From the NCBI RefSeq assembly GCF_046119375.1, contig NW_027362771.1:512244001-512308000 (forward strand): DNA of 64,000 nt, read 5' to 3'. Source of the DNA: Phyllobates terribilis. Its lineage: Eukaryota. The position numbers and the translations under genes are program-made. Shown here piece by piece: positions 12,426 to 63,664 of the stretch (position 1 is its first letter; every line of letters begins with the position of its first letter). Under the pieces are notes generated by a model, which ran no database searches, was not told the origin of the DNA, and saw nothing but the letters and a program-made list of their open reading frames with translations.

Positions 12426-12910
12426 CTTCAGTAGACCCCCATGTCCTGCCCAATCACCTCAGTCTTCAGTAGACCCCCATGTCCTGCCCAATCACCTCAG
12501 TCTTCAGTAGACCCCCATGTCCTGCCCAATCACCTCAGTCTTCAGTAAACCCCCATGTCCTGCCCAATCACCTCAGTCTTCAGTAGACCCCCATGTCCTG
12601 CCCAATCACCTCAGTCTTCAGTAGACCCCCATGTCCTGCCCAATCACCTCAGTCTTCAGTAGACCCCCATGTCCTGCCCAATCACCTCAGTCTTCAGTAG
12701 ACCCCCATGTCCTGCCCAATCACCTCAGTCTTCAGTAGACCCCCATGTCCTGCCCAATCACCTCAGTCTTCAGTAGACCCCCCATGTCCTGCCCAATCAC
12801 CTCAGTCTTCAGTAGACCCCCATGTCCTGCCCAATCACCTCAGTCTTCAGTAGACCCCCATGTCCTGCCCAATCACCTCAGTCATCAGTAGACCCCCATG
12901 TCCTGCCCAA
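12426..12910. repeat. 38-bp minisatellite, ~13 copies
   Basis: Unit cttcagtagacccccatgtcctgcccaatcacctcagt, almost invariant. Confidence 0.97.
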
Positions 12911-40440: not shown

Positions 40441-40794
40441 AGCCTTTCTGCAGCATTGGGCCCTGCAGCCCCAGCCAGATTAGTATTAGCCTATTTTTTG
40501 CAGCCTCATCTATTGCATTGTAGGTTACCTTCCTACATTGTAATAGCTACAAAAAGTTTGTGATACTATCGTTATTACATCTTTAGGCACATCCAGTGTC
40601 TTTTTGTGACAAAAAAAACCTAAATAAAGTTCACCAAACACTCCACTTTACAGTTGTGTAGGCCACATTAGCTCATATTAAAGTCTAGTCCACACTTTAT
40701 AAAATTAGTGTTTCTTATACCTGTTAGCAGCTGTTCAGGAATAAGCACACTAAGCCCTTAGTACTTTTCTGCCTATCTTTATCAGTCTACCAAG

Positions 40795-43700
40795 ATGAAG
40801 AAGGCAGGGAGTAAGGCATGTGGTCGTGGGCGTGGAGTTTCTGCAGGGAGAGGACGTGAGGATTCTGTGCCTGCAGGGAGAGGACGTGGGGATTCTGTGC
40901 CTGCTGCGGGCACCAGTGACTCAGCATCCCCCAGTTTTACCAGGGAACAGTCCTTTATGCGCAGCTTTGTAGGAGCTAGCCGTACCCCACTGCTGCGCGA
41001 GGACCAAATTGAAGCCGTTGTCGGATGGATGGCAGCTAACGCATCGACTTCAATTAGTTCCAGATCCTCTCAGGTCCTGAGCACTGAAGAGCACCCATCT
41101 GTCTCTTCACCACCTGCCAAATTGCCCAGGCAGTCAGAGAGCCCTGGACAGGAGCCATCTCTACTTCTGTTCTCTGAATCTCTTGGCTTGGAAAGAGGGG
41201 GCCAGCCAAGCAGAATTCGAGAATTTGAAGAAGAGGTAGTATGCAGTGATGCGCAACCGTTTTGTCTCTCTGAATCTGAAGAGGCGGGTGGGCCAGTGCC
41301 TATGGTCAGCAGCACACCTCAGTACGCATCTGATGATGAGACTCAGGTGCCACTTTCTGGTGCGTACTGTGCTGTCGAGACTACCCAGGAGAAGCAGTTG
41401 TTTGAAGAGGGTGGTGTAGATGATGAGGTCCTTGACCCATCATGGCGTGAGGGACAGGAAGGTGGTGGGAGCAGCTCTGAGGAAGAGATTCCCCGAACGG
41501 CCCAAAAAGGAGGGAGAGGGAGGGGGCAGACTTGGTTGCCTGTAGCCTCCACTTCGGCACCCATTAGGAGCATGGCTCTTCCAAAATCCAAAGCGGGCGC
41601 TCCCAAGACTTGCAGTGCCTGGTCCTTTTTTGACACAGTTGCAGATGACATTTGCTTTGTCAAATGCAAGCTGTGTAATCAGAAGGTGAAAAGAGGGAAA
41701 AGTGTCAGCAACCTCAATACCACAAATATGTGGAAACATGTGCGGACCAAGCATGTGGTGGAGTTACACAAACACACTGAAGACCTAGGCCAACCTACAG
41801 CGCCACCTACCACCTCTTCAGCTCGTGTTGTAGCCTCTTCCTCCAGCTCACACACAGCTGGTTCGGCTTCCTCACAGGATCGCCATGGAAGAATCTCTGG
41901 CACTGTCGTACAGAGACACAGTGTAATTCCACCCACAGCACCACTTTCCCAGTCATCCTCACACTCCCAGGCCAGTCTACAGCCATCGTTAGCACAGGCA
42001 TGGGAGAAAAGGCGCCCATACTCGGCAAACCACCCCCGAGCACAGGCTCTGAATGCTGGCATTGCTAAACTACTGGCCCTTGAAATGCTATCATTCAGGC
42101 TGGTGGAGACTGACACATTCCGTAACTTTATGGCATTGGCAGTCCCACAATACAACGTGCCCAGCCGCTTTTATTTCAGCAGGCAAGCCGTCCCTGCCCT
42201 GCAACATCATGTGGAGGGAAAAATTAAACATGCGCTACAAAACGCCGTCAGTAGCAAGGTCCACCTGACCACTGATGCGTGGACCAGTAAGCATGGACAG
42301 GGACGATACCTTTCCCTCACTGCCCATTGGGTAAATGTTGTGGAGCCGGGTACAGATCTTGAGAGTGGCGCTGTACGTGTTCTGCCAACTCCAAGGATTG
42401 CAGGAATCCAGTCTGTACACATTGACTCCTCCTCATACTCCAGTTCCTCTGAATCAGCGCTGCAGGAGCCGTCACGGTCTACCTCCACATCGACCCGTGA
42501 ACGGTTACCTGTTATGATGACCGATATGAGCACAGCCGTGGCCAAACGTCAACAGGCCGTATTAAAATTAATTTCTTTGGGGAATCGAAGCCACACAGCG
42601 CAGGAGCTCTGGAATGCCATCAAGCAGCAGAGTGACGTGTGGTTTGTGCCAGCGAATCTCCAGCCAGGCATGGTAGTGTGTGACAATGGCCGAAATCTGG
42701 TGGCAGCTCTGGGCCTAGGCAACCTCACTCACATCCCATGTCTGGCACATGTGCTCAACTTGGTCGTGCAGAGTTTTTTGAGGGACTATCCGGATCTTGA
42801 TGCACTGCTTCACAAGGTCCGCATAGAGTGCGCTCACTTGCGGCGTTCCAGCAATGCAAGATCACGCATTGCAGCTCTGCAGCGCCGATTATGTCTTCCG
42901 GAACATCGCATCATATGTGACCTACCCACCAGGTGGAATTCAACGTTACATATGTTGGAGAGGTTGTGTGAGCAGCAGGCAGCAGTAATGGAGTACCAGC
43001 TGCAGCAGGCGCAAACAAGTCGCAGTGCGCGCCGTTCACACTTCACCACCACTGAGTGGGCCTCTATGAAGGACATTTGCCACGTTTTGCGTGCCTTCGA
43101 TTATTCCACGCGGATGGCGAGTGCAGATGATGCACTAGTCAGCATGACTATCCCCCTTATCTGCCTGCTTGAAAAAACACTGCAAGCACTAAGGGACGAG
43201 GTTTTGGAAGAGGTGGAGGATGAGGAGTCACAAATGCCATCTGCTTCTCTACAGTCTGCGCAACGTGGTTCCTCACAAAGGCCTAGGCAGGGGACACTTT
43301 GTGAGGAGGATGAGGAGGAGTCAATGGATGAGGAAGACATCTGTCCAGAGGAGGGAGGTACACAATGCTCTAGTAGTCAGTATCTAGAGCGAGGGTGGGG
43401 TGATGCAGAGCAGGCAGAGATCACGCCTCAAGCAGGGGACAGCGTTTCTTGGCCATTTGGCAGTCTGCAGCACATGGTTGATTTCATGCTGCAGTGCCTC
43501 AGAAACGACCGCCGCATCGCCCACATTCTCAACACGGCTGATTATTGGGTGTCCACCCTCCTAGATCCTCGCTACCGGGACAACTTACAAAGCCTCATAA
43601 CACCATTGAACCGGGAGCGTAAAATGCGGGAGTACCAAGACGCACTGGTGCATTCCATCATGTTCTCCATTCCAACCGAGAGCAGTGCTGCTAGTGCTTT

Positions 43701-44175
43701 ACAAAGCAGCTCAGTGCGTCGAGGCAGTGGAGGAAGCTCTGCACAAAGAGGGAGCAGAAGCAGCGCCTCAGCACAAGGCAAGACCAGTATGGCCGAAATG
43801 TGGCAAAGTTTTGTGTCCCCGCCGCCACAAATGTCTACACCATCACAGACAGCTCCAGTCAGCAGGAGGCAACGTTTCCGTCAGATGGTGACAGACTACA
43901 TGTCTTGCCCTCTTAGTGTACTCCCAGACGGCTCTTCTCCCTTCAAGTTTTGGGTCTGTAAGCTGGATACATGGCCAGAGCTTAGTCAGTATGCACTGGA
44001 GGTGCTAGCTTGCCCTGCTGCTAGTGTATTATCGGAACGCGTCTTTAGTGCCGCAGGTGGTGTACTAACAGACCGTCGCATGCGACTATCCTCCGATAAC
44101 GTTGACCGGCTTACTTTTCTCAAAATGAACAAGGCCTGGATCTCTCATGAATTTGCCAGTCCTCTTCCAGAATAA
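40795..44175 (+). CDS. hAT transposase, 1126 aa, uninterrupted (BED zinc finger + RNase H-like DDE + C-terminal dimerisation region)
   Basis: BED finger AWSFF...CKLC...MWKHVRTKH; TTD494AWTS, VCD630NG, C649LAH, TRWNST, WPEL...ACPAASVLSE1081RVFS. Confidence 0.95.
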   Translation: MKKAGSKACGRGRGVSAGRGREDSVPAGRGRGDSVPAAGTSDSASPSFTREQSFMRSFVGASRTPLLREDQIEAVVGWMAANASTSISSRSSQVLSTEEHPSVSSPPAKLPRQSESPGQEPSLLLFSESLGLERGGQPSRIREFEEEVVCSDAQPFCLSESEEAGGPVPMVSSTPQYASDDETQVPLSGAYCAVETTQEKQLFEEGGVDDEVLDPSWREGQEGGGSSSEEEIPRTAQKGGRGRGQTWLPVASTSAPIRSMALPKSKAGAPKTCSAWSFFDTVADDICFVKCKLCNQKVKRGKSVSNLNTTNMWKHVRTKHVVELHKHTEDLGQPTAPPTTSSARVVASSSSSHTAGSASSQDRHGRISGTVVQRHSVIPPTAPLSQSSSHSQASLQPSLAQAWEKRRPYSANHPRAQALNAGIAKLLALEMLSFRLVETDTFRNFMALAVPQYNVPSRFYFSRQAVPALQHHVEGKIKHALQNAVSSKVHLTTDAWTSKHGQGRYLSLTAHWVNVVEPGTDLESGAVRVLPTPRIAGIQSVHIDSSSYSSSSESALQEPSRSTSTSTRERLPVMMTDMSTAVAKRQQAVLKLISLGNRSHTAQELWNAIKQQSDVWFVPANLQPGMVVCDNGRNLVAALGLGNLTHIPCLAHVLNLVVQSFLRDYPDLDALLHKVRIECAHLRRSSNARSRIAALQRRLCLPEHRIICDLPTRWNSTLHMLERLCEQQAAVMEYQLQQAQTSRSARRSHFTTTEWASMKDICHVLRAFDYSTRMASADDALVSMTIPLICLLEKTLQALRDEVLEEVEDEESQMPSASLQSAQRGSSQRPRQGTLCEEDEEESMDEEDICPEEGGTQCSSSQYLERGWGDAEQAEITPQAGDSVSWPFGSLQHMVDFMLQCLRNDRRIAHILNTADYWVSTLLDPRYRDNLQSLITPLNRERKMREYQDALVHSIMFSIPTESSAASALQSSSVRRGSGGSSAQRGSRSSASAQGKTSMAEMWQSFVSPPPQMSTPSQTAPVSRRQRFRQMVTDYMSCPLSVLPDGSSPFKFWVCKLDTWPELSQYALEVLACPAASVLSERVFSAAGGVLTDRRMRLSSDNVDRLTFLKMNKAWISHEFASPLPE

Positions 44176-44248
44176 ATAATTGGTTGGCAACAGTATCCAG
44201 GTCTCCTGTTCTGTTCATGTTTCTACCACCTGAACTGTAATCCCTGAG

Positions 44249-45870
44249 CTCCAACACCGCCAGTTGGCGCTCGGAAGTGCCGTCTGCACAGTCAACACTT
44301 GCTGCCGTGTTATTGGGGTTCAGTAACGTCAGCTGTTCTCCTGCTGTGCGGACGGCAATTTCTCCTGATTTGTCCACATCCACTGTACTACACATTTTAA
44401 AGTTGCTCCAATTACTCCTCTGGCTCCTCTGTTTTCATTCTTATCCCTGGGCTCCAGCACCGCCAGTTGGCGCTCGGAAGTGCTGTCTGCACAGTCAACA
44501 CTTGCTACCATGTTATTGGGGTTCAGTAACGTCAGCTGTTCCCCTGCTGTGCGGACGGCAATTTCTCCTGCTCTGTCCACATTCTCACTACTACAGATTT
44601 TAAAGTTGCTCCAATTACACCTCTGGCTCCTCTGTTTTCAGTATTATCCCTGAGCTCCAACACCGCCAGTTGGCGCACGGAAGTGCCGTCTGCACAGTCA
44701 ACACTTGCTGCCGTGTTATTGGGGTTCAGTAACGTCAGCTGTTCTCCTGCTGTGCGGACGGCAATTTCTCCTGCTTTGTCCAAATCCACTGTACTACACA
44801 TTTTAAAGTTGCTCGAATTACACCTCTGGCTCCTCTGTTTTCATTCTTATCCCTGGGCTCCAGCACCGCCAGTTGGCGCTCGGAAGTGCCGTCTGCACAG
44901 TCAACACTTGCTGCCGTGTTATTGGGGTTCAGTAACGTCAGCTGTTCTCCTGCTGTGCGGACGGCAATTTCTCCTGCTTTGTCCACATCCACTGTACTAC
45001 ACATTTTAAAGTTGCTCGAATTACACCTCTGGCTCCTCTGTTTTCATTCTTATCCCTGGGCTCCAGCACCGCCAGTTGGCGCTCGGAAGTGCCGTCTGCA
45101 CAGTCAACACTTGCTACCATGTTATTGGGGTTCAGTAACGTCAGCTGTTCCCCTGCTGTGTTCACGGCAATTTCTCCTGCTCTGTCCATATTCACTGTGC
45201 TACTTATTTAAAACTTGCTCCAATTACACCTCTGGCTCCTCCGTTTTTAGTATTTACCCTGGGCTCCAACACCGCCAGTTGGCGCTCGGAAGTGCTGTCT
45301 GCACAGTCAACACTTGCTACCATGTTATTGGGGTTCAGTAACGTCAGCTGTTCCCCTGCTGTGCGGACGGCAATTTCTCCTGCTCTGTCCACATTCTCAC
45401 TACTACAGATTTTAAAGTTGCTCCAATTACACCTCTGGCTCCTCTGTTTTCATTCTTATCCCTGGGCTCCAGCACCGCCAGTTGGCGCTCGGAAGTGCCG
45501 TCTGCACAGTCAACACTTGCTGCGGTGTTATTGGGGTTCGGTAACGTCAGCTGTTCCCCTGCTGTGTTCACGGCAATTTCTCCTGCTCTGTCCATATTCA
45601 CTGTGCTACTTATTTAAAACTTGCTCCAATTACACCTCTGGCTCCTCCGTTTTTAGTATTTACCCTGGGCTCCAATACCGCTAGTTGCTGCTCAGAAGTG
45701 CCGTCTGCACAGTCAACGCTTGCTCCAGTGTTATTGGGATTCAGTAACGTCAGCTGATCCCCAGCTGTGTGTCCGGCAAATTCTCCTGCTTTGTCCACAT
45801 CCACTGTAGTACGGATTTAAAACCTCCTCCAAATACACCTCTGGCTCTTCTGTTTTTAGTATTTACCCTG
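44249..45870. repeat. 203-bp tandem array (~8 copies) inside the hAT element
   Basis: Unit ctcca(a/g)caccgccagttggcgctcggaagtg... starts at 44249, 44452, 44655, 44858, 45061, 45264, 45467, 45670; explains the repeated ORFs. Confidence 0.95.
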
Positions 45871-47320
45871 GGCTCCAGCACCGCCAGCTGGTTCTCGGCA
45901 GTTCCATTGGCTCTTGTACCTTCTGCTACCCATCCGGGTTCCAGTACCGTCAGCTGGTTCTCGGCAGTGTCTTTGGCACGGGTACTCCCTCCTGCCCAGC
46001 CTGGTTCCAGCACGCCAGCTGTTTCCGGGTAGTGTCAACGTCACTTTGCCTCCAATGCGTTGTCCTGTCGTGTTGCGGTCGGGTTAGCCGACTCTATGGT
46101 GCCTGCAGTTTAGGTGACTCCTATGTGGGCTGCGGGATCTGGCAATGAAGGCTGGTTCCATAGTGCCAATAGGACAAGCACCCTCTGTAGGACTGTGGGT
46201 TTTGGTAACTGCGGCCGGCTCGCGGCCTTGAACTTTTTTTTTACATGGGTACCTTCTGCTACCCATCCGGGTTCCAGTACCGTCAGCTGGTTCTCGGCAG
46301 TGCCTTTGGATTAGGTGCCTCCTTCTCGGTATCCAAGTTCCACCAACGTCTGCTGGTCCTTGGTAGTGCTTTCTGGCACAGGTACCTCCTGCTTAGTAAC
46401 CGAGTTCCAGTAACATCAGCTGGTCCTCGGTAGTTCCATTGGCTCTTGTACCTTCTGCTACCCATCCGGGTTCCAGTACCGTCAGCTGGTCCTCGGTAGT
46501 TCCATTTGCTCTTGTATCTTCTGCTACCCATCCGGGTTCCAGTACCGTCAGCTGGTTCTCGGCAGTGTCTTTGGCACGGGTACTCCCTCCTGCCCAGCCT
46601 GGTTCCAGCACGCCAGCTGTTTCCGGGTAGTGTCAACGTCACTTTGCCTCCAATGCGTTGTCCTGTCGTGTTGCGGTCGGGTTAGCCGACTCTATGGTGC
46701 CTGCAGTTTAGGTGACTCCTATGTGGGCTGCGGGATCTGGCAATGAAGGCTGGTTCCATAGTGCCAATAGGACAAGCACCCTCTGTAGGACTGTGGGTTT
46801 TGGTAACTGCGGCCGGCTCGCGGCCTTGAACTTTTTTTTTACATGGGTACCTTCTGCTACCCATCCGGGTTCCAGTACCGTCAGCTGGTTCTCGGCAGTG
46901 CCTTTGGATTAGGTGCCTCCTTCTCGGTATCCAAGTTCCACCAACGTCTGCTGGTCCTTGGTAGTGCTTTCTGGCACAGGTACCTCCTGCTTAGTAACCG
47001 AGTTCCAGTAACATCAGCTGGTCCTCGGTAGTTCCATTGGCTCTTGTACCTTCTGCTACCCATCCGGGTTCCAGTACCGTCAGCTGGTTCTCGGCAGTGC
47101 CTTTGGATTAGGTGCCTCCTTCTCGGTATCCAAGTTCCACCAACGTCTGCTGGTCCTTGGTAGTGCTTTCTGGCACAGGTACCTCCTGCTTAGTAACCGA
47201 GTTCCAGTAACATCAGCTGGTCCTCGGTAGTTCCATTGGCTCTTGTACCTTCTGCTATCCATCCGGGTTCCAGTACCGTCAGCTGGTCCTCGGTAGTTCC
47301 TCAGCTTTCTTGTACCTTCT
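45870..47320. repeat. Nested 598-bp and ~198-bp duplications built from a ~60-bp subunit, inside the hAT element
   Basis: Identical ORFs at offset 598 (46084/46682, 46114/46712); gtaccttctgctacccatccgggttccagtaccgtcagctgg recurs many times. Confidence 0.9.
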
Positions 47321-47380
47321 GCTACATTTCCAAGTTCAAGCTTTTTGAAATGGTTCTTGGTAATCACTCTGGATCTCCCT

Positions 47381-51272: not shown

Positions 51273-51377
51273 TGCTCAGTCCATCATTTATGGGACTGAC
51301 CTATACAGAGCAATGAGGTTGAGGGGGATCACACAGCACTACTTCACTATATGGGTAGCACCTCATTAATGCACTAA

Positions 51378-51625
51378 GCAAATTGCCTCTTCAGAGAGGG
51401 AGAGGATGTAAACTCTAGCGCCACCTATTTGGAAGTAAAAGTGAATATCTACCCTTTAACGAGCACTGTCACATGACTTGGAATAAAAGCCAAGCTAGCA
51501 TCTATATTTGCAAACACACGTTTCGGGGTGTTGCCCTCCTCAGTGCAAAGCAAGAGATCTGATTTTGCTGTATGAGCGGCCTGTCAACAGCATAAGGGGT
51601 AATGTCTCTCCTTGTGGAGAGTGAC
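51378..51625 (-). mobile_element. Retrozyme-like short retroelement copy 1 (segments A-hammerhead-B), cds2 intron 4
   Basis: Shares gtcactctcca(c/t)aaggaga(g/a)ac(a/g)ttacccctt and ctcgttaaaggg...ggtggcgcta...ctctgaagag..aatttgc with 61558-61809. Confidence 0.7.
51507..51549 (-). ncRNA. Minimal type-I hammerhead ribozyme motif
   Basis: Minus strand TTTGCA-CTGAGGA-GGG CAACAC CCC-GAAA-C GTGT G-TT-TGCAAA: complete CUGAnGA/GAAA core, 6-bp stem I, 3-bp stem II, very short stem III, GUU cleavage triplet. Confidence 0.8.
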
Positions 51626-52162
51626 AAGCCACTTTATAGACTGTTCTGGACGATTCATTGACGCTACATAAATAGTGCAGCAATTGCACAGCTTTGATTA
51701 CAGAGGAAGTATTGCAATTTTGATATAAGTACATGAGCTGGATTCATTTGAAGGATCGGCTGTTACATATTTACATGGTTTCTGTCTCATCTGATTGGTT
51801 GACTTGATTCCCTATAGTTATTGTAATCATGATATTAACAAATACCGCCCCCTGTTGCTACTTGCAATCACGTATATAGTCTGTGTGATCCCACATTTGT
51901 AGTCTTCAATATTTTTAATAGCTAACATTAAGGTTTATGTACTTTAATGAAGGATTATACATTTTTGAAATAAATTATGAGGTTTCTACGTCTCCTTCTC
52001 TCTGTAGACAGTAATATCCTCGGCTATCTGTATCAGATCGTCTCAGACTTTGGTGGAACATTACTTTGTCTGTGCACCATAGGCCAGTTCTATCAATGTA
52101 GTCCACAAAAGTATTAACAGCATTGCGAAAGAGAGAGAGCGCGCGAAAGAGAGACACACAGT

Positions 52163-52473
52163 TGGGGCTGTGGAGTCAGTAAGCCAAACCTCCGACTCCT
52201 CAATTCTATGACTCCGACTCCCTCATACATGGCTCATGTTTATGTGATAAATTTACTGTAGCACAGATTCATCTCAGCTAAAAGTTTAGACCCTTAGATC
52301 AGGAATAGGACAGACATTTATAGGACATTTCATAACTTTCCCAAATTCTTATGAAAAAATATTCCCCACTAACTGCACTGAACTACTGTACCCAATTTAT
52401 TATATATTTTAGGAGTTGGAGTCGGTACATTTTATACCGACTCCACCAAAAAGGACACGACTCCGCAGCCCTG
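52163..52473. mobile_element. Non-autonomous derivative of the CAGGGCTGTGG hAT family, cds2 intron 4
   Basis: Termini tggggctgtgg/ccgcagccctg with GGAGTC/GACTCC subterminal repeats; degenerate TSD cacacagt/gagacagt. Confidence 0.8.
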
Positions 52474-52947
52474 GAGACAGTATGGGCAAAAATAGAGCGA
52501 GAGACACAGCAAAGGGGAAAAAAAGAAGATCGCAAGACACAGAGAAGGGGAAAAAAAAAAAAAAAGAGCGCGAGAGAAAAAAAGGCGTAAGAAAAATGCA
52601 AGAGAAAGAGGCCCGGCCACAAGTTTTTCTGACATGTTGCTGTCATCAATTTCTAAGTGAGATAATTTTTTTCAAATGAAATGGAAAAATATCCAAAGTT
52701 CATCTTCTGATCTGTGATCTATGTTCTGTAGTGAATACAATATGGCCATAAGAGACTTCAAAATCATTGCATTCTCGTTTTCTTTACATTTTATACAGCG
52801 CTCCCAATTTTTTAGGAATTGGGATTATAGATGTGACACAAAAATACAAGAGATAAAAGCGATAGATAAAGCTAGATATGAAAGATATTACTAGATGTAT
52901 ACCGTACATACAATTTGTCAGTAATGGCCTTCAAACTTTTTACATAC

Positions 52948-53045
52948 CAGCTAAGTGTCCGAAACCAGGGTAGATCATAGGAATGGTAGACATTGTAGCC
53001 GATCATGATAATCTCCTGGAAACACTTGATCTGCACACACATCAC
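52948..53045 (-). CDS. cds2: cds2 exon 4 (98 nt; [33 protein letters not shown])
   Basis: CDS2 motif in ORF 52872..53090; cag| acceptor, |GTATGT donor; preceded by a 76-nt intron. Confidence 0.97.
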
Positions 53046-53121
53046 CTGTCGGAAGAATCCCACACAGGTTATACACCAGATTATCCTCAAACATTACCAG
53101 ACGCCTCCAGGAGGGACTTAC

Positions 53122-53218
53122 AATCATCATGAGCACGATAGGTCCCAAATAGATGATGAAGAAGAAGAATGCTATCATGGCCAGCGTGAGGATGCCTCTG
53201 ACCCACCAGTTCTTCCAT
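53122..53218 (-). CDS. cds2: cds2 exon 3 (97 nt; RWKNWWVRGILTLAMIAFFFFIIYLGPIVLMMI)
   Basis: ORF track 52975..53226 carries this CDS2 segment; tag| acceptor and |GTAAGT donor. Confidence 0.97.
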
Positions 53219-54598
53219 CTAGTCACAGAGAAGATACAGGAGACATCAGTGTTGGCAAAGGCAACTGAAGATCATGTAATAGATCAGACCTAATACAATA
53301 GTTCTAATGGCCATACACCAGACCGGTAACAATAATCCTCAAAATATTAAGATGGAAATTGGATATACAATGCGGCAAAGAGTTATCACACCAACAACAT
53401 ACAGAACTACCCCCGTGTGAATGAACGGTAGTGCTCATACATTACCACTGCTCCACTCTGGGTCTATGGAGTGCTGTCACACAAGCGCTCTACCGCTCCA
53501 GTCACACAAGACTTTGGGACCACCCACCGTTCAAGAATTTGTCACATGTGCCATCTTGGGGTTTTCTTTTGTTACAGTAATCACCGGTTATAGCTTTGTG
53601 GTCTTACTATGGATTGTCCGTGGGTCTCCTAATCCAAACTTGACACACTCATAGGCATATTTGTGTTTGAGTTTGGGTTGGTACATCGGAGTCCGTACTT
53701 GGACCATGAAACATTAATGTGTGGAACCAGCCTTACAATGGAAGCCACAGCGTTATGTTGTATGTGTCGCCCAGCAAGCCCCAATACATTGTCAGGTTCT
53801 GGTGTCTATGGCTTTGGCATAACGAGTATGATGATTACACAATTTTTGATACATTTGTATATTTTGTGAGTGCATTTAGAAGTATGTAGCAGAGCGGCAT
53901 CTTGTCTGCTTCCTCTTTGGCGTTCGTCTCATTTACCCCATAATTCTTCCGGCCGATGTTTCCCACGTACATGTTTGGGGACGGCGTGTAGATAAAGTGC
54001 TGTGCATTGCACAAGTATTATACATCTATGACGCCGCTGTTTAATAAACTTGCTGTTTTTATTTCTGACACTTGTAGGACTCCCACAGGAAAACTCTGTT
54101 TGATCAGGATTGTAGAGCTACACATCATCTGCGGCATCCAACGTCTTATCCCCCCTCCCTCGTCCATCTATTTAAAGCGCCATTTCCTGACCTGCAGCCC
54201 TTATCCTGTAAGGGAAGGATCCAATTTACTTATTGTTAGTGAGAGGAAGGCCAATCTCATCAGAAAGCAGCTGCTGCGTGGCTAAGGAAATGAAGACATG
54301 GGCATGCAAGGTCTTCACCTGGCCTGGTCTTCTGTTACCTGTCATGAATAGTTATGAGTGAAGTGGCTGGTGGCACCGTGGTACGGCGATGGCAGCTCGT
54401 TCGGTAGTACTGATAACGTGGGATTGGGTAACTGCCCTCGGGTCGCTCTGCCATGCGATCTCATTAAGCATGGCTGCTCTGGTGACAACGGAGGACAATT
54501 CTCACATTTCAGCAGATTTGCTTAGATTAAACGGATATCGGTGCCTGTAACAGATGTGGAGAGCAGAAGCCGCTGTAGGAAATGCATAATGATATTAA

Positions 54599-55809
54599 CC
54601 CCTTTCCGACATGTGTTGTAATAGTACAGCACACCTTGGCTCGTTCAGATCAGAGGGAAGTGCGGGCTCAGCGGCAGAGCCCGCACCTTTCTGGGCACAC
54701 GACAGCTGATCTGGTCGGATCAGCTCTCATGTGCCCCAACAGCCGCGGGTGGAATCGCGATCCACCCGTGGCTGTTAATTAGTTAAATTCCGCTATCAAT
54801 CTCAGACAGCAGTATTTAATTTGCACTTCCCGGAAGCCCATCACATGACCGTGGGTCGCCGATCGGTTGGCATGATAACCCGGGGTCTGCAGGAGACCCC
54901 TGCGGTTGTCATAACAGTTTGCTATGAGCGTCGCCCAGAGGTAGGCGCTCATAGCAAGTGAGTGCTGATCATGGCCTGTGTGTAGCAGAAGCAATCAGAC
55001 AATTGCAGCTTCTAATCTCCCATGGAAACTATGGAAGCAAGCAAAAAAAAAAAGTTATTAAAAATATTAACGAAATGAAAAAAAATATAAGTTTAAAATC
55101 TCCCCTTTTCCCCCCATTCAAAATAAAAAAAAAAAAAATCAAACCTACACCTATTTGGTATCGCCACGTTCAGAATCGCCCGATCTATCAATATAAAAAA
55201 ATAATTAATCCAATCGGTAAACGTCGTAACGAAATAAAAAGTCAAAACGCCATAAGTACTTTTTTTTGGTCGCCGAAACATTGCAACAAAATACAATAAT
55301 GGGTGATGAAAACATCGGATCTACCCCAAAATGGTATCAATAAAACTATCAGCTTGGCACACAAAAAATAAGCACTCACCCAGCCCAGATCCCGAAAAAT
55401 GGAGAAGCTACGAGTCTCGGAAAATGGCGCCTTTTTTTTTTCCACCACTTAAATAAAAAAGAACCTATACATGTTTGGTGTCTACGAACTTGTAATGACC
55501 TGGAGAATAATAATGGCAGGTCAGTTTTAGCATTTAGTGAACGTGGTTAAACAAAAAAAAACAACAAAAAAAAAAAAAAAAAAAACACACTTCGGAATCG
55601 CACTTTTTTTTGCAATTTTACTGAACTTGGAATTTTTTTCCCAGTTTTCCAGTACACAATATGGTAAAACAAATGGTGACGTTCAAAAGTACAACTTGTC
55701 CCGCAAAAAAATAAGCCCTCACATGGCCATATTGACCGAAAAATAAAAAAAAGTTATGGCTCTGGGAAGAAGGGGAGCAAAAACTGAAAATAGCCCGGTC
55801 ATGAAGGAG
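54599..55809. mobile_element. piggyBac-like non-autonomous element (~1.2 kb), cds2 intron 2
   Basis: TTAA|CCCCTTTCCGAC ... GTCATGAAGGAG|TTAA. Confidence 0.8.
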
Positions 55810-56431
55810 TTAAAAACACAGCCGTGGTTACTGCTTTTGCTCACAGTCCATTAGACGGGGTCTGGTTTTGGAAAACTAGTGAAAGTGAGTGGAGTGTCTC
55901 TTGCTGTAAAGAACTTAACAAGCTCATGTAATACACAAACAGGTTATTAAAAAGGTCATCCAATGTTAAAAAAGCACCAATATAAAAAAAAAAACTGTTA
56001 CGAGACGTACAAAATAAAGAATAAATCACGTGTAATCTTTTTTCCCCTCGACAGATCCACTACAGACTCTATAGCTCCTGGTCTTAGTTTACAAGCGGCC
56101 AGCATGGGGCGGCTGCAGCTAATTGTCGGCTTCAGAAGGTCAGGTGCCATGTTTCGTCGTATTCATGACTGCTGTGGAGACTAGCTGCAGCGGTCAAATG
56201 ATGGCTCCTTGTAAACAAAGACTAAGAGGTCAGTGCGGTATCACCGTGGGAATGAAGACGTGAGCGGGGTGTTTTGTTTTGCTTTTTTTTTAATACCATT
56301 TCCCTTTGTTTTAGACGTTTGATGACCCATTTAATTTCAATCATAATGATGTAAAGCTTTACTTTCCTGCAGTGGCGCCACCGGAAAATTCAGCACTTGA
56401 TGCCAAGCTAACCCTCTAAAGAACTGCTTAA

Positions 56432-57160
56432 AGGGGTGGTCAGAAAGCCAGATGAATTTTCATCCTTAATCCCTTTCTATTTGATGCCATAATCTAAACC
56501 ATTTTCTAATAAACTTGAATTAAAAAAATTCCCTAACTTCCCGTACTTCATTTCTGATGAAGCTTCATTTGAGAATCCTAGTGCATGATGGGATACTCAA
56601 ACGAAGCGTCATCAGGGTTTATAGGCTGCAGTCAATGTCACAGCCCCTGACCCCTCTCTGAACTGATGCGTCATCAGTCACCTCCGTTTCAGAGGCTGTG
56701 CTAGTCCCTGGGCTATGTGCACAATGGCAGTGCGCACTCTGTTGCTGGTTTAGAGTAAGCAGTAACAAGCCGGCAACAGAGCGCGTTGTCAGAGGGCAGG
56801 GCTCGTCTCTGCACACTGGGTATTCTGACACTACAAACTAACAGTGTGCTCACCTGCCAGCTCATTACTACTGATCTGAGCCAGCAACAGAGAGTGCGCT
56901 TTCATTGTGCACATCGTGCAGGGACTAGCCCTGCCCCTAAAATGAGCTTAGTTTCAGGGAGGGAGCAGAAGCTGATTGCACTGGGTTTATCAAGCAAAGA
57001 TTCAAAAAAAAAAGAGAAAAGCAGTTCGATAAATGTAGTTAGGGAAGGATAGGAAATTTTTAATTCAATTAATTCAAGTATATTAGAAAATAGTTTAGAT
57101 TACGGCATTAAATAGATATGGATTTAGGAGGAAAATTCATTTGGATTTCGGATCACCCCT
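56432..57160. mobile_element. Kolobok/T2-like MITE
   Basis: TTAA|AGGGGTGGTC ... GATCACCCCT|TTAA with internal inverted segments. Confidence 0.75.
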
Positions 57161-57449
57161 TTAAAGTTTTTGTCCATGCCAAATTGGCCACCCAATTTGA
57201 CACGGGGCATGAAGGCACACTATTGCATGCTGGACAAAACAAGTTTCAAAGACAACCATCTGAAATCCAGCGAGTATCATGAACGGGTCTTATTCTAATT
57301 AACTGGACCCATAGAAGATACTTGTCAGATTGTTACTTTGGCAACTGTACCGCTCAGCATGCACGGCTTTGATTTGGTGGCAGAGTATAGCTGAACAACC
57401 CCTTTAACTATAATAACGATACTCATGTGCACAAAACATCTGTCACCGC

Positions 57450-57720
57450 TAGGGGGACGGGCAGGACAAGTGGGTGCCAGCAGAGTCAATGAGCAACTCA
57501 GCCATGGCATTCAGATACTGCCAGGGCTGTTTTCATTAGGTTTGCCCCAGATAGAGAAAAGCTTAGCAACAACCATAAAAATGGTTTGCCAAGTACTGAC
57601 CTCAATCCATCAGGCACCTTAGTGATGGACTGGGTCGTCAGTGGCCAAACGTTAGTCAACGGAACGCCTACTGTTGTATCAGAAGTTCTAGAACTTGGTG
57701 TACAAGAGGATTGATGAAAC
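57450..57720 (+). pseudogene. Old Tc1 transposase relic
   Basis: ccaagtactgacctcaatcca = PSTDLNP, a degenerate SPDLNP motif, in decayed context. Confidence 0.45.
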
Positions 57721-57993
57721 ATGCCTTAGGTTAGAAGTCTGGGAGTAAAGTAAACCATTTACCCACAACAGATATATGTATGGCCACCTGAGGGGTTTGG
57801 GGATTTCTAACAGCAGCAAAACACTGTCTTTCCATCACTGCAGCAATTCATTAGTGAAGCTGCTGGCTGAGGATTGTGTGTAATCTGCTTACACTGCAGC
57901 CAGTCAGGGAGCACAAGTCACCGGCTTTGATGTTCTCATCACAATGAGCATTTAACTCCTGCAAAGCAAACAATGATTACAAAGAGATGTGAC

Positions 57994-58142
57994 CTGGAGG
58001 ACAGGCTGGAAAGGGCTCTGTTGAGGACTTCAGGGGTGTCATCGGTCGGGGTGCCTTGCTGAGTTCCACCAGTGTCCGTCTTGCTGTCGCTGTCTGATGC
58101 AGTCTCCCCATCGAGTTTAACTTCAGGTTCCGGCTCGATCTC
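57994..58142 (-). CDS. cds2: cds2 coding exon 2 (149 nt; EIEPEPEVKLDGETASDSDSKTDTGGTQQGTPTDDTPEVLNRALSSLSS-R)
   Basis: Manual translation matches the CDS2 N-terminal DGETASDS...DDTPEVLNRALS motif; acceptor ttttcttctag, donor CAG|GTCACA; phase 2 joins exon 3. Confidence 0.92.
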
Positions 58143-58908
58143 CTAGAAGAAAACAAACAGACATTTTCAACAACTTCATTAAACCCTTAATTTCATACAT
58201 CCGGGTAAGTCCCTCTAACACCCCAGCATCCAGCTAAGGTCGCACGCATTAGTGTCTAGAGGTCTCAGGCATATTCCCTAAAAGTGTCAATACTGGGTCA
58301 GGAATTACAGACTCACTTTTGGACCATGCACAGAAAAGAAAATCTCCCGATCATGAAAAACTTCCAAAGTCTAAGCTCTGAGGACACAAATGACGATAAA
58401 GCAGCTCTTCAATGTGAGGAACCCACAGGATCACAGCCTCCAGGACACCTCTTTCAATGAACATACTACCCATTACTGTATATGCATGAGGAGGGTCCCT
58501 CCACCCAAGACACCCTCAATACAACAACACCAAGATCTGCTAAGAAGCAGCAGCACTCCCAGGCCTTACATTATATTTCTCCATGATTATTAATGAGTTT
58601 CTATTAATAAGCACATTGTTAAAGGGGCTGTCCAACTAACCAATAAATTCTCAAAAGGCAGGTAAATGTTATAAATATATAAAACAACGTATATATTCCA
58701 TCTCTAACCCTTGTAATAATCAAGAGCGGATTTCTCCGATGACGTCCGCTAAGAGAGAAAGTCAGGACATTCTGTTCTCTGGTCACCTGACCAATGTCTC
58801 CTCAGAATGTTCCAAGATTCTTGATGCGTCAGATGAGGTCTCATTACAGTCACCTGACTATTGCAGCCAATCCCATAGCTCAGATTATAAAACAGTGGTA
58901 TCCCTTCA

Positions 58909-59017
58909 GACCACAGTGGAGACCACAGTGGAGACCACAGTGGAGACCACAGTGGAGACCACAGTGGAGACCACAGTGGAGACCACAGTGGAGACCACAG
59001 TGGAGACCACAGTGGAG
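58909..59017. repeat. 12-bp tandem repeat (gaccacagtgga) x9
   Basis: Direct reading. Confidence 0.95.
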
Positions 59018-59093
59018 ACGCAAGGGCTAGAGCCCGAGAGTAAAGTTTCTGTCATTATCACATGGCCTGCATTTTGAGATTTTTTTTTTGTAA

Positions 59094-59274
59094 GGCCTTA
59101 AATCAGACAATTACGGCCCACGACTTCAGGTCTTACCACAGGTCTCCTGATCCAAACTCTACAACTTCATAGGCATATATAAAGGCTGTTGAGTTGGGGT
59201 CAGGAGGAGACACACGGTAAGTCCTGAAGTTGTGGGCCATACCCAGACTGCGATATACACATCTGAATGATGCC
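59094..59274. mobile_element. Palindromic Harbinger-like MITE
   Basis: taa|GGCC...ggcccacgacttcagg ... cctgaagttgtgggcc...GCC|caa. Confidence 0.6.
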
Positions 59275-59599
59275 CAAGTCAGACAACCCCTAGGTGGAAA
59301 AGGACAAAAATAACAAAGAAAAAAAAACACCCCACTTTTTACATTCCCCAGAATTATCAAATATAAGCAGCGTGACTGAAAATCACGTAGCATACCTGAA
59401 GCGGTGTTTCAGGTATAATATCCAGCCAGGGACCTTAGCTGGAGGTGAGAGGAGTCCGGCTCCGCCCCAGGTGAAAGACCAATCACCTGGAGCTAAGCTG
59501 GCAGAAGCCGGACTGATCTGGTCTCCAGCTATGGTCCATGGCCGAATATTATAACTGTATTTTTTCTGAAACCCCGGCGGATTTCATAGGAAAATATAC

Positions 59600-60470
59600 C
59601 TGGCTGCAACTATGCTCCGATTCATGTTTCTCACAGTTTGGGCTAAATGTTACTCAGACTGGAGGCGTGTACTTCTCCCTGTATGAGTTGTCCAATCATA
59701 AGTAGGCTAAAACACAGCAGAAAAAGAACACGCCCCCAACCAGAGCTTAAGTTTCTCGAGTGTGAAATATAATACCACTGCTCTAATCTCATGGTTTTAT
59801 CTTCTGCATGATTACAAAGTACAGATTACCAAAACCTTTCAGACAACGTCCCTGTGGGGGAGGGGCAATGCAGCTCTGTTACATTAAAAACCCTTTTTTC
59901 AGCTCTCCTCTACTAGCACAGTCAGCTCTGCTGTGCTGCCACTCCTCCCATACTGCCAGTCCAGAGTTGTGTCAGTAATCACACTTCTGTCTGTTGTGCT
60001 TAACTTGTACTAGCTCTGCAGTGAGATCAAGAGCAGGGTCTCATTAAATCTCACGCAGGAGTAGTCCAGAACATGAAGGTTACTCCTGTGTGAGAGGTAA
60101 CGACAGCCTGGATCTCACTGCATAGTGATTACAAGTTGCTTGTGAGCATAAGATATAAGTGTGATTGATGACACATCAGTAATCAAGAGAGTGGATAGAA
60201 TGGTTTGTAATGTGACACAGCTAAACTCAGCTGCACCGCTCCTCCCTAACACTGACTGAGTGCAGGGAATAAGACCAAGAGATGAGAGCTGTATCATTAC
60301 ATTTCAAACACTGAGAAACCTGCTCTAAGCTATTGTGGGGGCATGTTCTTTAATTTATGCGTCACTGCCTACTAAGGATTGGTCAGCATCATACGTGGGA
60401 AGTAGTACATGACTTCAAGTGAAAACTCTGATAACTTTTTTAAGTCCGACTGGGTGCTAACTCATTAGGT
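59600..60470. mobile_element. Old palindromic MITE of the same family as ~8500-9130
   Basis: Shared caaacactgagaa.cctgctctaagctat.gtggggg and inverted arms; boundaries approximate. Confidence 0.55.
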
Positions 60471-60537
60471 ACCAAATACTTTCACATTTTTCAAGTTGAA
60501 TTGGACACATGATGTAACAATGGCTCGAGAGTGGAAT

Positions 60538-60572
<35 letters not shown>

Positions 60573-61523
60573 GGGGGGGGGGGGATATTTAGATCCTGAT
60601 AAAACAACTGTACTCCAGGTGCTCATAAAGTACTCCATTTAGTGTTAGCCACAGGGCTGATAGTGGTGATGCAGACATGGCTGCAGGAACAAACACCCCC
60701 ATTTAAAATGTTGTTGAATAAACTATCAACCCTTATAAAAATGGATTGAGACGAGGCATCACTGCACATGGAGAAACAAGTAAATGCCTTTTATTCCCCA
60801 GACATGGGAAAGTTTCACTTTGCAATTACCACAACCAATAAAACACAAAGAACGGTCTTTTCAGCTTCCAATCAATAGGAAGCCCTGATATTTTTTAATG
60901 GATAATGATCAATTATGTGCTGTTCAGAATTAGCAAGTAGTAGAAATGCCAAAGAAACTGAAAAACAAAGAATCCAAGAGGATAACAGGACGCAGGTGAC
61001 TACTACAAGCTTCTTCCCTTCTGGCCATCTTCTGATCAGTGTCCACAGTAAAAGCATTGTCCTTTGCTATGAGTGTTCCTAGGAAGGTTAGTTTCCTGAT
61101 TACTGGCCTGTCTAAACAAGCCGGCCATCACACGATTAAGCAAAATGCTCGTTCATCAGGAGAGATGATTTTTCACCAGGACATGTGCTGCCGATAAAAT
61201 GATGTTCTATGGGAACAGAACAATTGTTATTAATGATTGTTATGTGCCCACAGAATCCTGGTCGGTCTGTAAAAACAGGGCATTACGTGTCCGCTGATCA
61301 TATTGCATGTAGCTGAATAGCGGCCATTTAATGGCCAGGATCAGGCAGTGTAAATTGGCCCTTACATCGGTCTTCTATTTAGGATCCATCCCAGAGTTCA
61401 AAAAACGCAACAACATGAATGTGGAAACATACCGTTTAGCTGTATTTTATGTCCAGCTGCAGGTACACAATCAGGGAATTTACAGCCAGTCATTAAAATT
61501 GACATTGTGTCCACCAGTCTTAA

Positions 61524-62855
61524 CCCTTTCACAACCTTGGGTTTTTCTGTTTTTGCGAATTGCCTCTTCAGAGAAAGAGAGGACTTGTACTCTATATATT
61601 GCACGACTCGTTAAAGGGTTGATTGTGACTTGTAGGATCGCTGCTTCCAATAGGTGGCGCTATAGAGTACAAGTCCTCTTTTTCTCTGAAGAGTTAATTT
61701 GCATATTAAATTTCCCAGAGGAGCATTGCACGGCAAACAAGCCTCCATACCTTGACGTGCCAGAGCTGGTGTGTCACTCTCCATAAGGAGAAACGTTACC
61801 CCTTCGACCTCTGTTTTTGCGGTGTTTGTTTTTTGCTCCCCCCTTCTTCCCAGAGCCATAGCATTTTTACTTTTCCATCAATATGGCCATGTGAGGGCTT
61901 GTTTTTCGCGGGACGGGCTGTACTTTTGAACGACACCATGGGTTTTACCATACTGTGTACTGGTACATGGAAAAAAAAAATCAAAGTGCGGTAAAATTGT
62001 AAAAAAATTCCACAATTGTTTTTTTTTTTACCATGTTCAGTAAACTCTAAAACTGACCTGCCATTATGATTCCCCAGGTCATTACGAGTTTGGAGATACC
62101 AAACATGTATAGGTGGTGGGGGAAAAAAAAAAAAAAAAAAGACATTTTCCGAGACCCGTTGCGTCTCTATTTTTCGGGATCTGGGGCCGGGTGAGGGCTT
62201 ATTCTTTGTGCGTCGAGCTGACGTTTTGATGGATACCATTTTGGGGTAGATGTGATCTTTTGATCGCCTGTTATTTGCGAACAAAAAAAACCTTAATTCT
62301 GGCGTTTTGATTTTTTTCTCATTACGCCGTTTACCGATTGGATTAATTCTTTTTATATATCAATAGATCGGGTGATTCTGAACGTGGTGATACAAAATGT
62401 GTAGATTTGATTTTTTTTTTATTGTTTGATTTTGAATGGGGCAAAAAGGGTGGGGGGCGATTTGAACTTTTATTTATTTAAAAAAAAAAAAATGTAACTT
62501 TTCACTTTCTTTAATAGTCTCCATGGGAGAGGCTTCATCCTAAAGTGTGTAACAAAAGTGCTCACTTGCTATGAGCGTGAATCGCTGGGAGGTGACCATG
62601 ACAACAGCAGGGGTCTCTTGCAGACCCCGGATTATCATGCCAACCCATCGGCGACCCTCGGTCATATGACTAGTGACAAACTTCCGGATGACAACGGCAT
62701 TTAACATGTTAACAGCCGCGGGTGGATCGTGATTCCACCCGCGGCTGTTAGAGGCACATGACAGCTGATCAGATCAGCTGTCATGTCCCTGGAAAGGTGC
62801 GGGCTCAACTCCGGAGTCCGCGCCAAAAAGGTCCGCGTCCAAGGTCATTAAGAGG
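61524..62855. mobile_element. piggyBac-like element of the same family as 54599-55809, in opposite orientation, cds2 intron 1
   Basis: TTAA|CCCTTTCACAACC start, ggtcattaagagg|ataa end; 61820-62000 aligns by eye to the reverse complement of 55600-55790; interrupted at 61558-61809. Confidence 0.8.
61558..61809 (+). mobile_element. Retrozyme-like short retroelement copy 2 (inverted head + segments B-C-A), inserted in a piggyBac-like MITE
   Basis: 12-bp TSD TCTGTTTTTGCG (61546-61557, 61810-61821); the first ~42 bp are the inverted complement of 61661-61702. Confidence 0.75.
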
Positions 62856-63664
62856 ATAATGATCGGGACCAATAGAGTGAGATGCGCCTAATTCTTTAAG
62901 AGGTCTCTCAGAGAAAAAATGAAAAATCCATATAGACATCTTCGGGGAGGCGACATCTCACCCTCACATTGAAGATATGGGATTAATTATAACTGGGGAA
63001 GTGAGAAAGAGCAAACACTTCAACCTCCATTGAAGTAGGACCTCCTGCTGTAAACAGGTAATTACATCAGGGGATCTGCTTAGAGCCAGCCACCAAGTAT
63101 AGGATTCGCATACTCCAAGGCGGAGAAGTACACTTCCCGAGATTGAGATTCCTTTGAACAGAGGAATCCCCTAACACTCTGGAGCCAGTGGTCAATGATG
63201 AATATTGGGGTTTACACGGATCCAATATTTATGAGAGATATATTTTCGGCGTCATGGCGAAGTGATGAACATAACACATTCACTCACATCACTGTAAAGC
63301 CGGCCTAACACCTCCAACTTTACATCACACTAGATGGATGATGCTATCCATGCCATGTTTCATCTCTATAAAAAGAAAAAAATTGAGATAATGAAAATGA
63401 CGACAATATCTCCATCCTGGGACCTCCAGGGGCAAAGAGATCCTGGAACCCTACTCTGTGCTCCATGGGATTGTGGTGATCCTAGGGGTCAAACTCCCAG
63501 CAATCAGTAAGTTATCACCTATCCCATGGGTAGGTCATAATCTACAAACTGTACAAACCCTTTAAAGAGCGAGATGATACCAAATCCAAAAAGAGGTCTA
63601 AAAGGTAAAGTTTATCCTTGTGGATAGTGCCAAGCCAGTGTATGAAGACTTCTAGCCACGCAAT

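Follow-up and report, generated by a model that had tools for sequence, protein, structure and literature searches.

Two copies of a short repeat and a third fragment of it lie in the window, the term used here for the whole 64,000-nucleotide stretch of Phyllobates terribilis DNA that was analysed. In the features that follow, A, B and C are segments of the repeat, HH is its hammerhead, and E1 and E2 are the two sites at which most of its 3′ ends fall.

51376..51631, minus strand: copy 1, old subfamily, solo, order A-HH-B, 5′-truncated, 3′ end at site E1
51507..51549, minus strand: type I hammerhead core of copy 1, with helix I strands, CUGAnGA, helix II, GAAA and a weak helix III
between 51513 and 51512, minus strand: predicted cut of the copy 1 hammerhead, fold-based
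61520..62859, plus strand: host element of copy 2, a TTAA-bounded, MITE-like multi-copy repeat with inverted ends
61546..61557, plus strand: left target-site duplication of copy 2, 12 bp, its final bases overlapping the E1 arm (microhomology)
61554..61596, minus strand: inverted arm of copy 2, 43 nt, monomer positions about 66-110, outer end at site E1
61596..61814, plus strand: main arm of copy 2, young subfamily, monomer 1-219 (B-C-A), 3′ end at site E2
61697..61704, plus strand: exact octamer motif in copy 2, with a conserved Staf/ZNF143-like stretch after it
61706..61811, plus strand: E1-to-E2 segment (C plus A, about 105 nt), between the two 3′-end sites
61810..61821, plus strand: right target-site duplication of copy 2, 12 bp, identical to the left one
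63595..63637, minus strand: third, short fragment of old type (segment A), ending at E2

Segments A (33 nt, 91% identity, E=5e-7) and B (60 nt, 82%, E=1e-7) are common to the two copies, and the orders given by the first-pass annotation, A-HH-B on the minus strand for copy 1 and B-C-A on the plus strand for copy 2, are confirmed, though for copy 2 it missed the inverted 43-nt arm and the 12-bp target-site duplication (TSD). The copies belong to different subfamilies: the best relatives of copy 1 match it at about 80% identity, those of copy 2 at 95-96%. The core of copy 1 has its conserved bases intact and its helices decayed (hammerhead domain fold z=+1.4), and no target duplication was found for it, the best match between its flanks being 6 nt; copy 2 is without a hammerhead. 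The TTAA-bounded element in which copy 2 sits may be of the piggyBac/Kolobok kind, and that location is what a DNA-level satellite or MITE cargo would lead one to expect, spread by recombination or DNA transposition with the hammerhead incidental. Relatives of the host element, however, are without the insert and have the target motif once, and 0 of the 29 closest relatives of copy 2 align on into its flanks, which rules out copy 2 as MITE cargo. For the family at large the TSDs, 5′ truncation and compensatory pairing described below fit RNA-mediated insertion, and spread at the DNA level is very unlikely.

The two window copies are members of a single tandem family, non-coding and equipped with a type I hammerhead. 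The continuity A-HH-B-C proposed at first pass occurs in natural tandem copies (L047 and L088) with a period of 332 nt, and the expected monomer of about 320-330 nt is borne out by 332 nt in the young subfamily and about 305-320 nt in the old, where tandem periods are about 305-318 nt. Exact-pattern searches of the genome matched at least 1,595 young hammerheads, 1,414 B segments and 286 old hammerheads, with reversed controls giving 0 each. Tandem arrays reach six units, and several exact hammerhead cores occur in one array (four in L088, three each in L099 and L061), as is expected of a retrozyme and is seen in neither window copy alone. Monomer GC is 45.8%. Coding capacity is lacking, as had been claimed: no ATG ORF longer than 54 aa overlaps the array, and the repeat does not carry the reverse transcriptase (RT) plus GIY-YIG ORF of an autonomous Penelope-like element (PLE).

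On fold and alignment the monomer is predicted to carry a self-cutting type I hammerhead, with the cut at monomer position 294/295. The core and three helices are present with covariation, as in canonical type I hammerheads: 92.8% of cells in the alignment are paired, and compensatory changes include GC in 19 and CG in 8 for helix II and AU in 17 and UA in 10 for the extension of helix I. The hammerhead domain folds with z=-4.5 and the whole monomer modestly, with z=-1.8. Helix III is weak, and Rfam gave no hammerhead match for the window at the gathering threshold or for three loci at E<=5. Dimers of eight out of nine Xenopus retrozymes were without cleavage in vitro.

Promoter-like motifs are also found. 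The octamer, exact in copy 2, is conserved in both subfamilies (chance about 1.3%), and together with the Staf/ZNF143-like stretch is possibly a candidate snRNA-type enhancer, going by motif resemblance. A conserved motif in B may be CTCF-like. Comparison of segment A with the regions upstream of this genome's U1 and U2 genes for a proximal sequence element was no better than shuffles (21-57 of 60), and 5′ ends do not pile up near the predicted transcription start. An snRNA-type internal promoter, with an octamer plus a proximal sequence element, is reported for newt satellite 2 in work cited in PMC2220036.

Whereas 5′ ends of the insertions scatter over the whole monomer, 3′ ends fall at two fixed sites, E1, which is internal and 148 nt past the predicted cut, and E2, about 105 nt from E1. 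In the hammerhead-anchored sample of 83 3′ ends, 65 are at E1, 10 at E2 and 8 elsewhere (binomial p about 1e-55); a separate B-anchored sample of 52 gives 37, 12 and 3. When 3′ ends are pooled, 199/231 lie within 40 nt (positions 101-120 and 201-220), and 0/231 lie within 10 nt of the predicted cut. The first-pass expectation, that a circle integrates without a fixed priming site and leaves random circular permutations, accounts for the 5′ ends and for the common head-to-tail junction, and the tandem multimers expected with it exist (up to six units), yet the predicted scatter fails at the 3′ side, where 75/83 anchored ends are at two fixed sites. Clustering in the anchored, B-anchored and pooled sets refutes random permutation, to which we give hardly any credence. 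Copies 1 and 2 appear permuted because copy 1 has its 3′ end at E1 and copy 2 at E2.

Of 50 insertions with two arms in inverted orientation, 38 pair E1 with E2 (21/28 and 17/22 in two samples). Among the 50 none is E1+E1 or E2+E2, L216 (115/127) being a borderline E1+E1, and the other 12 have an end outside both sites; in the old subfamily 8/12, read by eye, are E1+E2. A TSD of at least 10 nt flanks 34/38 of the E1+E2 insertions as against 7/600 mismatched control pairs, the typical length being 12-16 bp. Flanks are 67% AT versus 58%, and there are often a few bases of microhomology at the E1 priming end. The insertions combine two internal 3′ ends and an optional tail with an inverted 5′ arm, 5′ truncation and a TSD of about 10-15 bp, as in PLE-mobilised elements, and by analogy the E1-E2 segment (C plus A) is interpreted as an optional ‘tail’ of the PLE type. 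The consensus fold of B-C-A is weak, with a double change in 2/25 pairs, and shows no defined structure at E1 or E2.

Of 51 arms, 40 read through the predicted cut site, and 11 stop at 287-306, around the cut, compared with 24/398 elsewhere (Fisher p=7e-4, post hoc), so that linear RNA already cut may have served as template in some cases, or RT may pause there. Some multi-unit insertions (L061, L075, L086, L089) contain unequal units, which one monomer circle does not explain; with L061 set aside, 18 columns are subset or all-but-one as against 22 common to all units. Rare variants are shared about ten times more commonly within an insertion (0.0047/nt for tandem units, 0.0042/nt for arms) than between insertions (0.00043/nt), and an arm-offset test for the unit copied by E2 found sharing equal at offsets 0 and +1, which favours neither; the locus counts from that test are unreliable and are set aside. 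Four contig sets under as many organism labels, which we guess to be RNA-derived and from which strand, ends and circularity are unreadable, cover 28/28 bins and the go-back joint at 332. Unequal or alternating units in single insertions, the weak helix III, the excess of stops near the cut and the dominance of unprocessed RNA as substrate of the anole PLE PAc (PMC11167929) would all suit the same element and PLE machinery working from a linear, incompletely cut multimeric transcript of genomic tandems, with circles absent or irrelevant to mobility. Against this, though just 7/83 hammerhead-anchored insertions reach two units, dispersed TSD-flanked insertions extend to about 2.4 kb (L061, L088), lengths easily regenerated by a circle, and, on the account given in PMC7229834, like-sized retrozymes of the axolotl are circular to about 50%. 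An exclusively linear template is a serious contender, if one we would not bet on.

A check for a Penelope-like partner, suggested at first pass, succeeded in respect of the scar and gave no shared sequence among the loci sampled. The genome has a resident GIY-YIG PLE family of Neptune type, whose copies are 96-97% identical within the main subfamily. It too ends at two 3′ sites, which lie about 80 nt from each other, and in three of four head-to-head pairs a long end is combined with a short one, with TSDs of 13-18 bp (the Neptune-type pair L152/L310 was left unscored). This same scar points to PLE target-primed reverse transcription of the repeat. The partner search sampled 30 of 63 scored matches, from 4,370 candidates: blastn between the repeat and 30 GIY-YIG loci with 1.5 kb on either side, and with a further 10 longer stretches, together a small fraction of those candidates, found no shared sequence. 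No intact PLE ORF was seen in the loci sampled, the longest frame being 430 aa with an RT match below cut-off (E=1.5e-4). That the copies are instead what remains of an autonomous PLE, namely solo or partial pLTRs, and not an independent non-autonomous family, is improbable. All the scars are PLE-like, many Xenopus retrozymes match pLTRs and PLE diversity was sampled in part, all of which such remnants would accommodate; yet pure monomer arrays, the longest with six units, have TSDs immediately at their flanks, tblastn of 219 locus records (12 with an endonuclease match) found no endonuclease end abutting the 5′ end of an arm, the hammerhead is extended and canonical rather than of the minimal PLE form, and the array is non-coding as noted above.

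The reading that we prefer, and hold with considerable confidence, is that a 332-nt protein-free hammerhead repeat with two fixed 3′ ends and 12-15-bp TSDs is copied by the endonuclease and RT of a PLE, likely Neptune-type, from likely circular or uncut multi-unit RNA. The repeat would be transcribed and cut by its hammerhead, which with its weak helix III probably works best in a dimer, and some of the RNA would be ligated into circles. Judging from the scars, a PLE protein would then nick AT-rich DNA on both strands, the nicks lying about 13 bp from each other. One strand would be primed at internal E1, often with a few bases of microhomology, and synthesis would proceed backwards across the cut site, covering 0.4 to 6 units before halting at scattered positions; the second strand, if extended, would start about 105 nt further 3′, at E2, and the product would be the head-to-head E1/E2 insertion. 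Both steps are modelled on the genomic pattern. On this preferred reading the old, truncated copy 1 is a product of E1 priming and the young copy 2 one of E1+E2 priming. A more elaborate version, tentative and on balance doubtful, is that a dimeric RT-endonuclease of Penelope type holds a single small circular ribozyme RNA, recognised by its shape and sharing no sequence with the enzyme's own pLTR, and primes each strand from its own site, E1 first and E2 second, the RNA having its own snRNA-type promoter; the repeat would then be a viroid-like parasite of Neptune. If true, a dimeric enzyme with one site per strand would account for the ‘tail’ and the inverted-repeat structures of PLEs generally.

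The insertion scars point directly to PLE target-primed reverse transcription as the mover of an animal retrozyme, a matter so far argued from co-occurrence and pLTR similarity. The loosely described PLE ‘tail on one end’ becomes countable, as one arm per start site in 38/38 classifiable pairs, and with its two start sites mapped, a 332-nt template opens both the second-strand step of PLEs and the part played by the circle to testing in the in vitro system that already exists.

The family is a non-LTR retrozyme, and as a class is already known. The first-pass identification of a non-autonomous hammerhead-bearing non-LTR retrozyme with multimers and PLE-type mobilisation stands, with a tandem monomer in the range of about 150-450 nt, GC below 50%, no coding and TSDs longer than 4 bp; its suggestion of an undescribed system fails because non-LTR retrozymes have already been reported in amphibians including Xenopus. 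Plant LTR retrozymes differ in having LTRs, a type III hammerhead and a 4-bp TSD, as against type I, tandem units and 12-16 bp here. Axolotl Rtz331 and Rtz353 and newt satellite 2, as presented in PMC7229834, are alike in their monomer of about 330 nt (GC is 46% here), in having both tandem and dispersed copies, in a type I hammerhead whose helix I is extended and whose helix III is weak, in lacking an ORF and in a TSD longer than 4 bp. For them circular RNA is demonstrated, whereas for the present repeat it is predicted; conversely the fixed 3′ ends and the E1+E2 rule seen here are not described in what that source sets out. Xenopus and other amphibian retrozymes, including REP4, are alike in size (mean consensus 316 bp) and in occurring as monomers, dimers and multimers (bioRxiv 10.64898/2026.07.22.740005). 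That preprint proposes retrozymes as non-autonomous PLE derivatives, arguing from co-occurrence and pLTR similarity with no insertion-end analysis in its main text; here, in contrast, the link to PLEs is the insertion scar, and pLTR similarity was not found among the loci sampled. A 2020 review states that the repeats of animal retrozymes lack any motif that would indicate a partner (PMC7761336).

PLE RT has two internal start sites, and both strands are extended by it (PMC11167929); a tail is found on one of the inverted pLTRs (PMC3846280, PMC8557442), the optional ‘tail’ being a concept of all three papers. With the PLEs they describe, PAc/Poseidon, Adineta Penelope and the Neptune clade respectively, the repeat shares two internal RT start sites, an optional one-end tail, a head-to-head inverted 5′ arm, 5′ truncation, AT-rich targets, a TSD of about 9-15 bp and a hammerhead upstream of the start sites. 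It is unlike them in having no ORF and a canonical rather than minimal hammerhead, and in a tail of about 105 nt, as against 30-40 nt in those papers and about 80 nt in this genome's Neptune-type family. The strict pairing of one site per arm contrasts with PAc in vitro, where the start site shows no difference between strands.

A and B are common to the two retrozyme copies of the window (G000:C11:512244001-512308000 within the 10.6-Gb assembly) in the orders given by the first-pass annotation, A-hammerhead-B in copy 1 and B-C-A in copy 2. A natural monomer at another locus, L047:1497-1828, is 332 nt long, and all monomer positions are numbered on it.

Window 51376-51631, minus strand: copy 1, sharing A and B with copy 2
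Window 61596-61814, plus strand: copy 2, sharing A and B with copy 1
Monomer 1-110: segment B
Monomer 110-177: segment C
Monomer 177-219: segment A
Monomer 236-318: hammerhead domain

Genome searches gave 4,041 first-look candidates with copy 1 as query and 2,627 with copy 2; among the 40 scored for each, the best relatives of copy 1 are 78-82% identical to it and those of copy 2 95-96%, and so copy 1 is assigned to an old subfamily and copy 2 to a young one. Exact patterns for the young hammerhead core, for B and for the old hammerhead core are present in at least 1,595, 1,414 and 286 places in the genome, respectively, and each reversed control in 0.

Insertions end 3′ mainly at two fixed monomer sites about 105 nt apart, E1 (100-122) and E2 (205-226). 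The first sample was the first 100 listed core matches (C1, 5-379 Mb), from which removal of six overlapping loci and one duplicate gave 83 insertions. Their 3′ ends are at E1 in 65, at E2 in 10 and elsewhere in 8, and their 5′ ends are scattered, so that the proposed scatter of copy boundaries on a circularised monomer holds for 5′ ends and fails for 3′ ends. Removal of one further duplicate left 54 solo insertions (46 E1, 3 E2, 5 other) and 28 head-to-head two-arm insertions, 21 of them E1+E2 and 7 with an end elsewhere. A second, B-anchored sample of 52 insertions absent from the first (40 retrieved and 12 of 30 auto-loci) comprises 30 solo (24 E1, 5 E2, 1 other) and 22 two-arm insertions (17 E1+E2, 5 with another end). 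Pooled, E1+E2 accounts for 38 of the 50 two-arm insertions, with no E1+E1 or E2+E2 pair among them (L216 of the second sample, with ends at 115/127, is a borderline E1+E1); even assuming equal use of E1 and E2, the absence of same-site pairs has p ~4e-12. Read by eye, 8 of 12 two-arm insertions of the old subfamily are E1+E2. One more E1+E2 insertion was met, unselected, within a Penelope-like element (PLE) at L179. The window copies do differ in order, but their apparent circular permutation arises because copy 1 ends at E1 and copy 2 at E2, each 5′-truncated on a tandem unit.

Target-site duplications (TSDs; at least 10 nt, at most one mismatch) flank 17/21 E1+E2 insertions in the first sample and 17/17 in the second, 22/54 solo copies in the first, and 7/600 mismatched flank pairs used as control. 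Copy 2 itself belongs to the E1+E2 class, the two copies of its 12-bp TSD being identical, and its host is a TTAA-bounded MITE-like element, the insert being absent from all nine relatives inspected. The host's family has 2,321 first-look candidates genome-wide and two window copies in opposite orientation.

Window 54662-55800, minus strand: TTAA-bounded MITE-like family, copy a
Window 61520-62859, plus strand: the same family, copy b, host of copy 2

The predicted fold is a type I hammerhead. It has a 6-bp helix I that continues into a stem with an internal loop, the CUGAnGA element, helix II of 4 bp, GAAA, and a nearly palindromic helix III of 3 bp; the predicted cut is at monomer 294/295. 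The young domain folds with z=-4.5, and an alignment drawn from both subfamilies (37 distinct rows) has 92.8% of its cells paired (slid controls, 22-48%). Two-sided changes number 22 cells in these rows versus 10.4 ± 2.3 in shuffles, a control inflated by kinship among rows, though the switch is clean at two pairs. In copy 1 the conserved core bases are intact but the fold is poor (z=+1.4), copy 2 has no hammerhead, and an Rfam search of the window and three loci detected none. For amphibian hammerhead motifs, both helix I extensions with internal loops and cleavage that depends on the dimer are on record (PMC6155905, PMC7229834).

None of 231 pooled 3′ ends is near the predicted cut, which 40 of 51 B-anchored arms cross, so the template was mostly continuous there, either as an uncut multimer or as a circle closed again by ligation. 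Sharing of rare non-CpG variants is about 10 times more frequent within insertions (tandem units, 87 in 18,362 nt; arms, 49 in 11,596 nt) than between them (221 in 509,143 nt), which argues that the two arms of one insertion share one source; with L061 left out the counts, by subtraction, are 52 in 13,808 for units and 30 in 9,609 for arms. Against one monomer circle as template stand unequal or alternating units in several insertions and the 11 of 51 arms that stop about 10 nt or less from the cut (p=7e-4, post hoc). Arm stops are also in excess at the 167-186 hairpins. In three loci (L086, L075, L061) variants alternate from unit to unit with period 2, which may reflect dimeric templates or subsequent duplication. 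The best fit is a mixed template of circular monomers, multimers and cleaved linear RNA, and by analogy with axolotl it seems somewhat more likely than not that retrozyme circles exist in vivo.

A possible promoter is suggested by an exact octamer (chance about 1.3%) and an adjoining stretch that resembles ZNF143 sites (those of PMC7154149) and is one base longer, both kept in both subfamilies. Segment A matches the U1 and U2 upstream regions of this genome no better than chance. Newt satellite 2 is cited with an snRNA-type promoter (PMC2220036, citing primary work), but retrozymes are described as seemingly having no promoters (PMC7761336). There is also a third retrozyme subfamily (L070:1067-1266, L083:2090-2300), with 5 nt deleted between octamer and Staf-like stretch. 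U1 snRNA has 403 exact matches genome-wide and the U2 snRNA 5′ motif 60,562, the 100 listed for U2 being mostly part of tandem arrays with a unit length of about 1,306 bp.

G000:C1:534.63-534.74 Mb (L271-L295): U1 snRNA tandem array, period 1,079 bp, octamer at -240
G000:C5:12.4-12.8 Mb and 76.0-76.2 Mb: U2 tandem regions

At L266:1501-2830 and several neighbours the first 41 nt or so of U2 are separated from the rest by an insert of about 920 bp with a short A run at its end, like a non-autonomous U2-targeting retroelement, possibly of the Keno/Utopia kind; dispersed copies have the same U2/insert junction. Within the window, a very short CUGAnGA...GAAAC motif that lacks a flanking helix I (5389-5404, plus strand) is probably due to chance. 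The longer of two hAT frames is possibly intact and is directly followed by the 203- and 66-nt minisatellite arrays.

Window 14896-16200, plus strand: hAT transposase frame, 434 aa
Window 40762-44175, plus strand: hAT transposase frame, 1,137 aa, zf-BED and hAT dimerisation domains
Window 12344-12973: minisatellite, period 38 nt
Window 20417-21284: minisatellite, period 54 nt
Window 26027-26584: minisatellite, period 31 nt
Window 44240-45962: minisatellite, period 203 nt
Window 45846-47374: minisatellite, period 66 nt
Window 58884-59043: minisatellite, period 12 nt

The retrozyme's scar is the same as that of a Neptune-type PLE family in this genome, a long and a short end with a TSD. A genome search for GIY-YIG gave 63 matches among 150 scored of 4,370 candidates, and most of 30 loci inspected have the Cys motif assigned to the Neptune and Nematis clades (PMC8557442). 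In the commonest family (13 of the 30) 3′ ends form two groups about 80 nt apart, and four head-to-head pairs could be scored: three combine a long with a short end and have TSDs of 14, 18 and 13 bp, and one, which lacks a TSD, combines a short end with an intermediate one.

L306:1082-8945 (G000:C5:542.31 Mb), L308/L309 and L313: Neptune-type PLE head-to-head insertions, long plus short 3′ end, 13-18-bp TSDs

The long end of these pairs is just beyond a splice-donor-like motif. An autonomous PLE sharing the retrozyme's termini had been proposed as something to look for; no sequence is common to the retrozyme and the GIY-YIG elements inspected, in which no intact PLE ORF was seen and the RT match is weak, and so it is the scar, and not a particular element, that points to a PLE partner.

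The retrozyme family is genuine and its insertions bear clear scars of PLE type, and since it shows all the testable defining features of a non-LTR retrozyme its class is already known. The earlier suggestion of an undescribed system gives way to a report that each of seven amphibians sampled has such elements, 316 bp long on average, and that in Xenopus cleavage assays one dimer, of the retrozyme REP4, cleaved and eight other elements did not (bioRxiv 10.64898/2026.07.22.740005); our comparison is with its main text, and this family or its ends might be included in its supplements. In the literature searched, in which subscription journals are thinly covered, neither fixed 3′ ends nor an E1+E2 rule was described for retrozymes, and the mechanistic detail is possibly new. 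For PLEs one-sided tail asymmetry is already known qualitatively: the tail is on one of two inverted terminal repeats, pLTRs (PMC3846280), and with a purified PLE both strands are nicked and extended, synthesis starting at two internal sites, which delimit the tail, and the start sites in vitro being without strand difference (PMC11167929).
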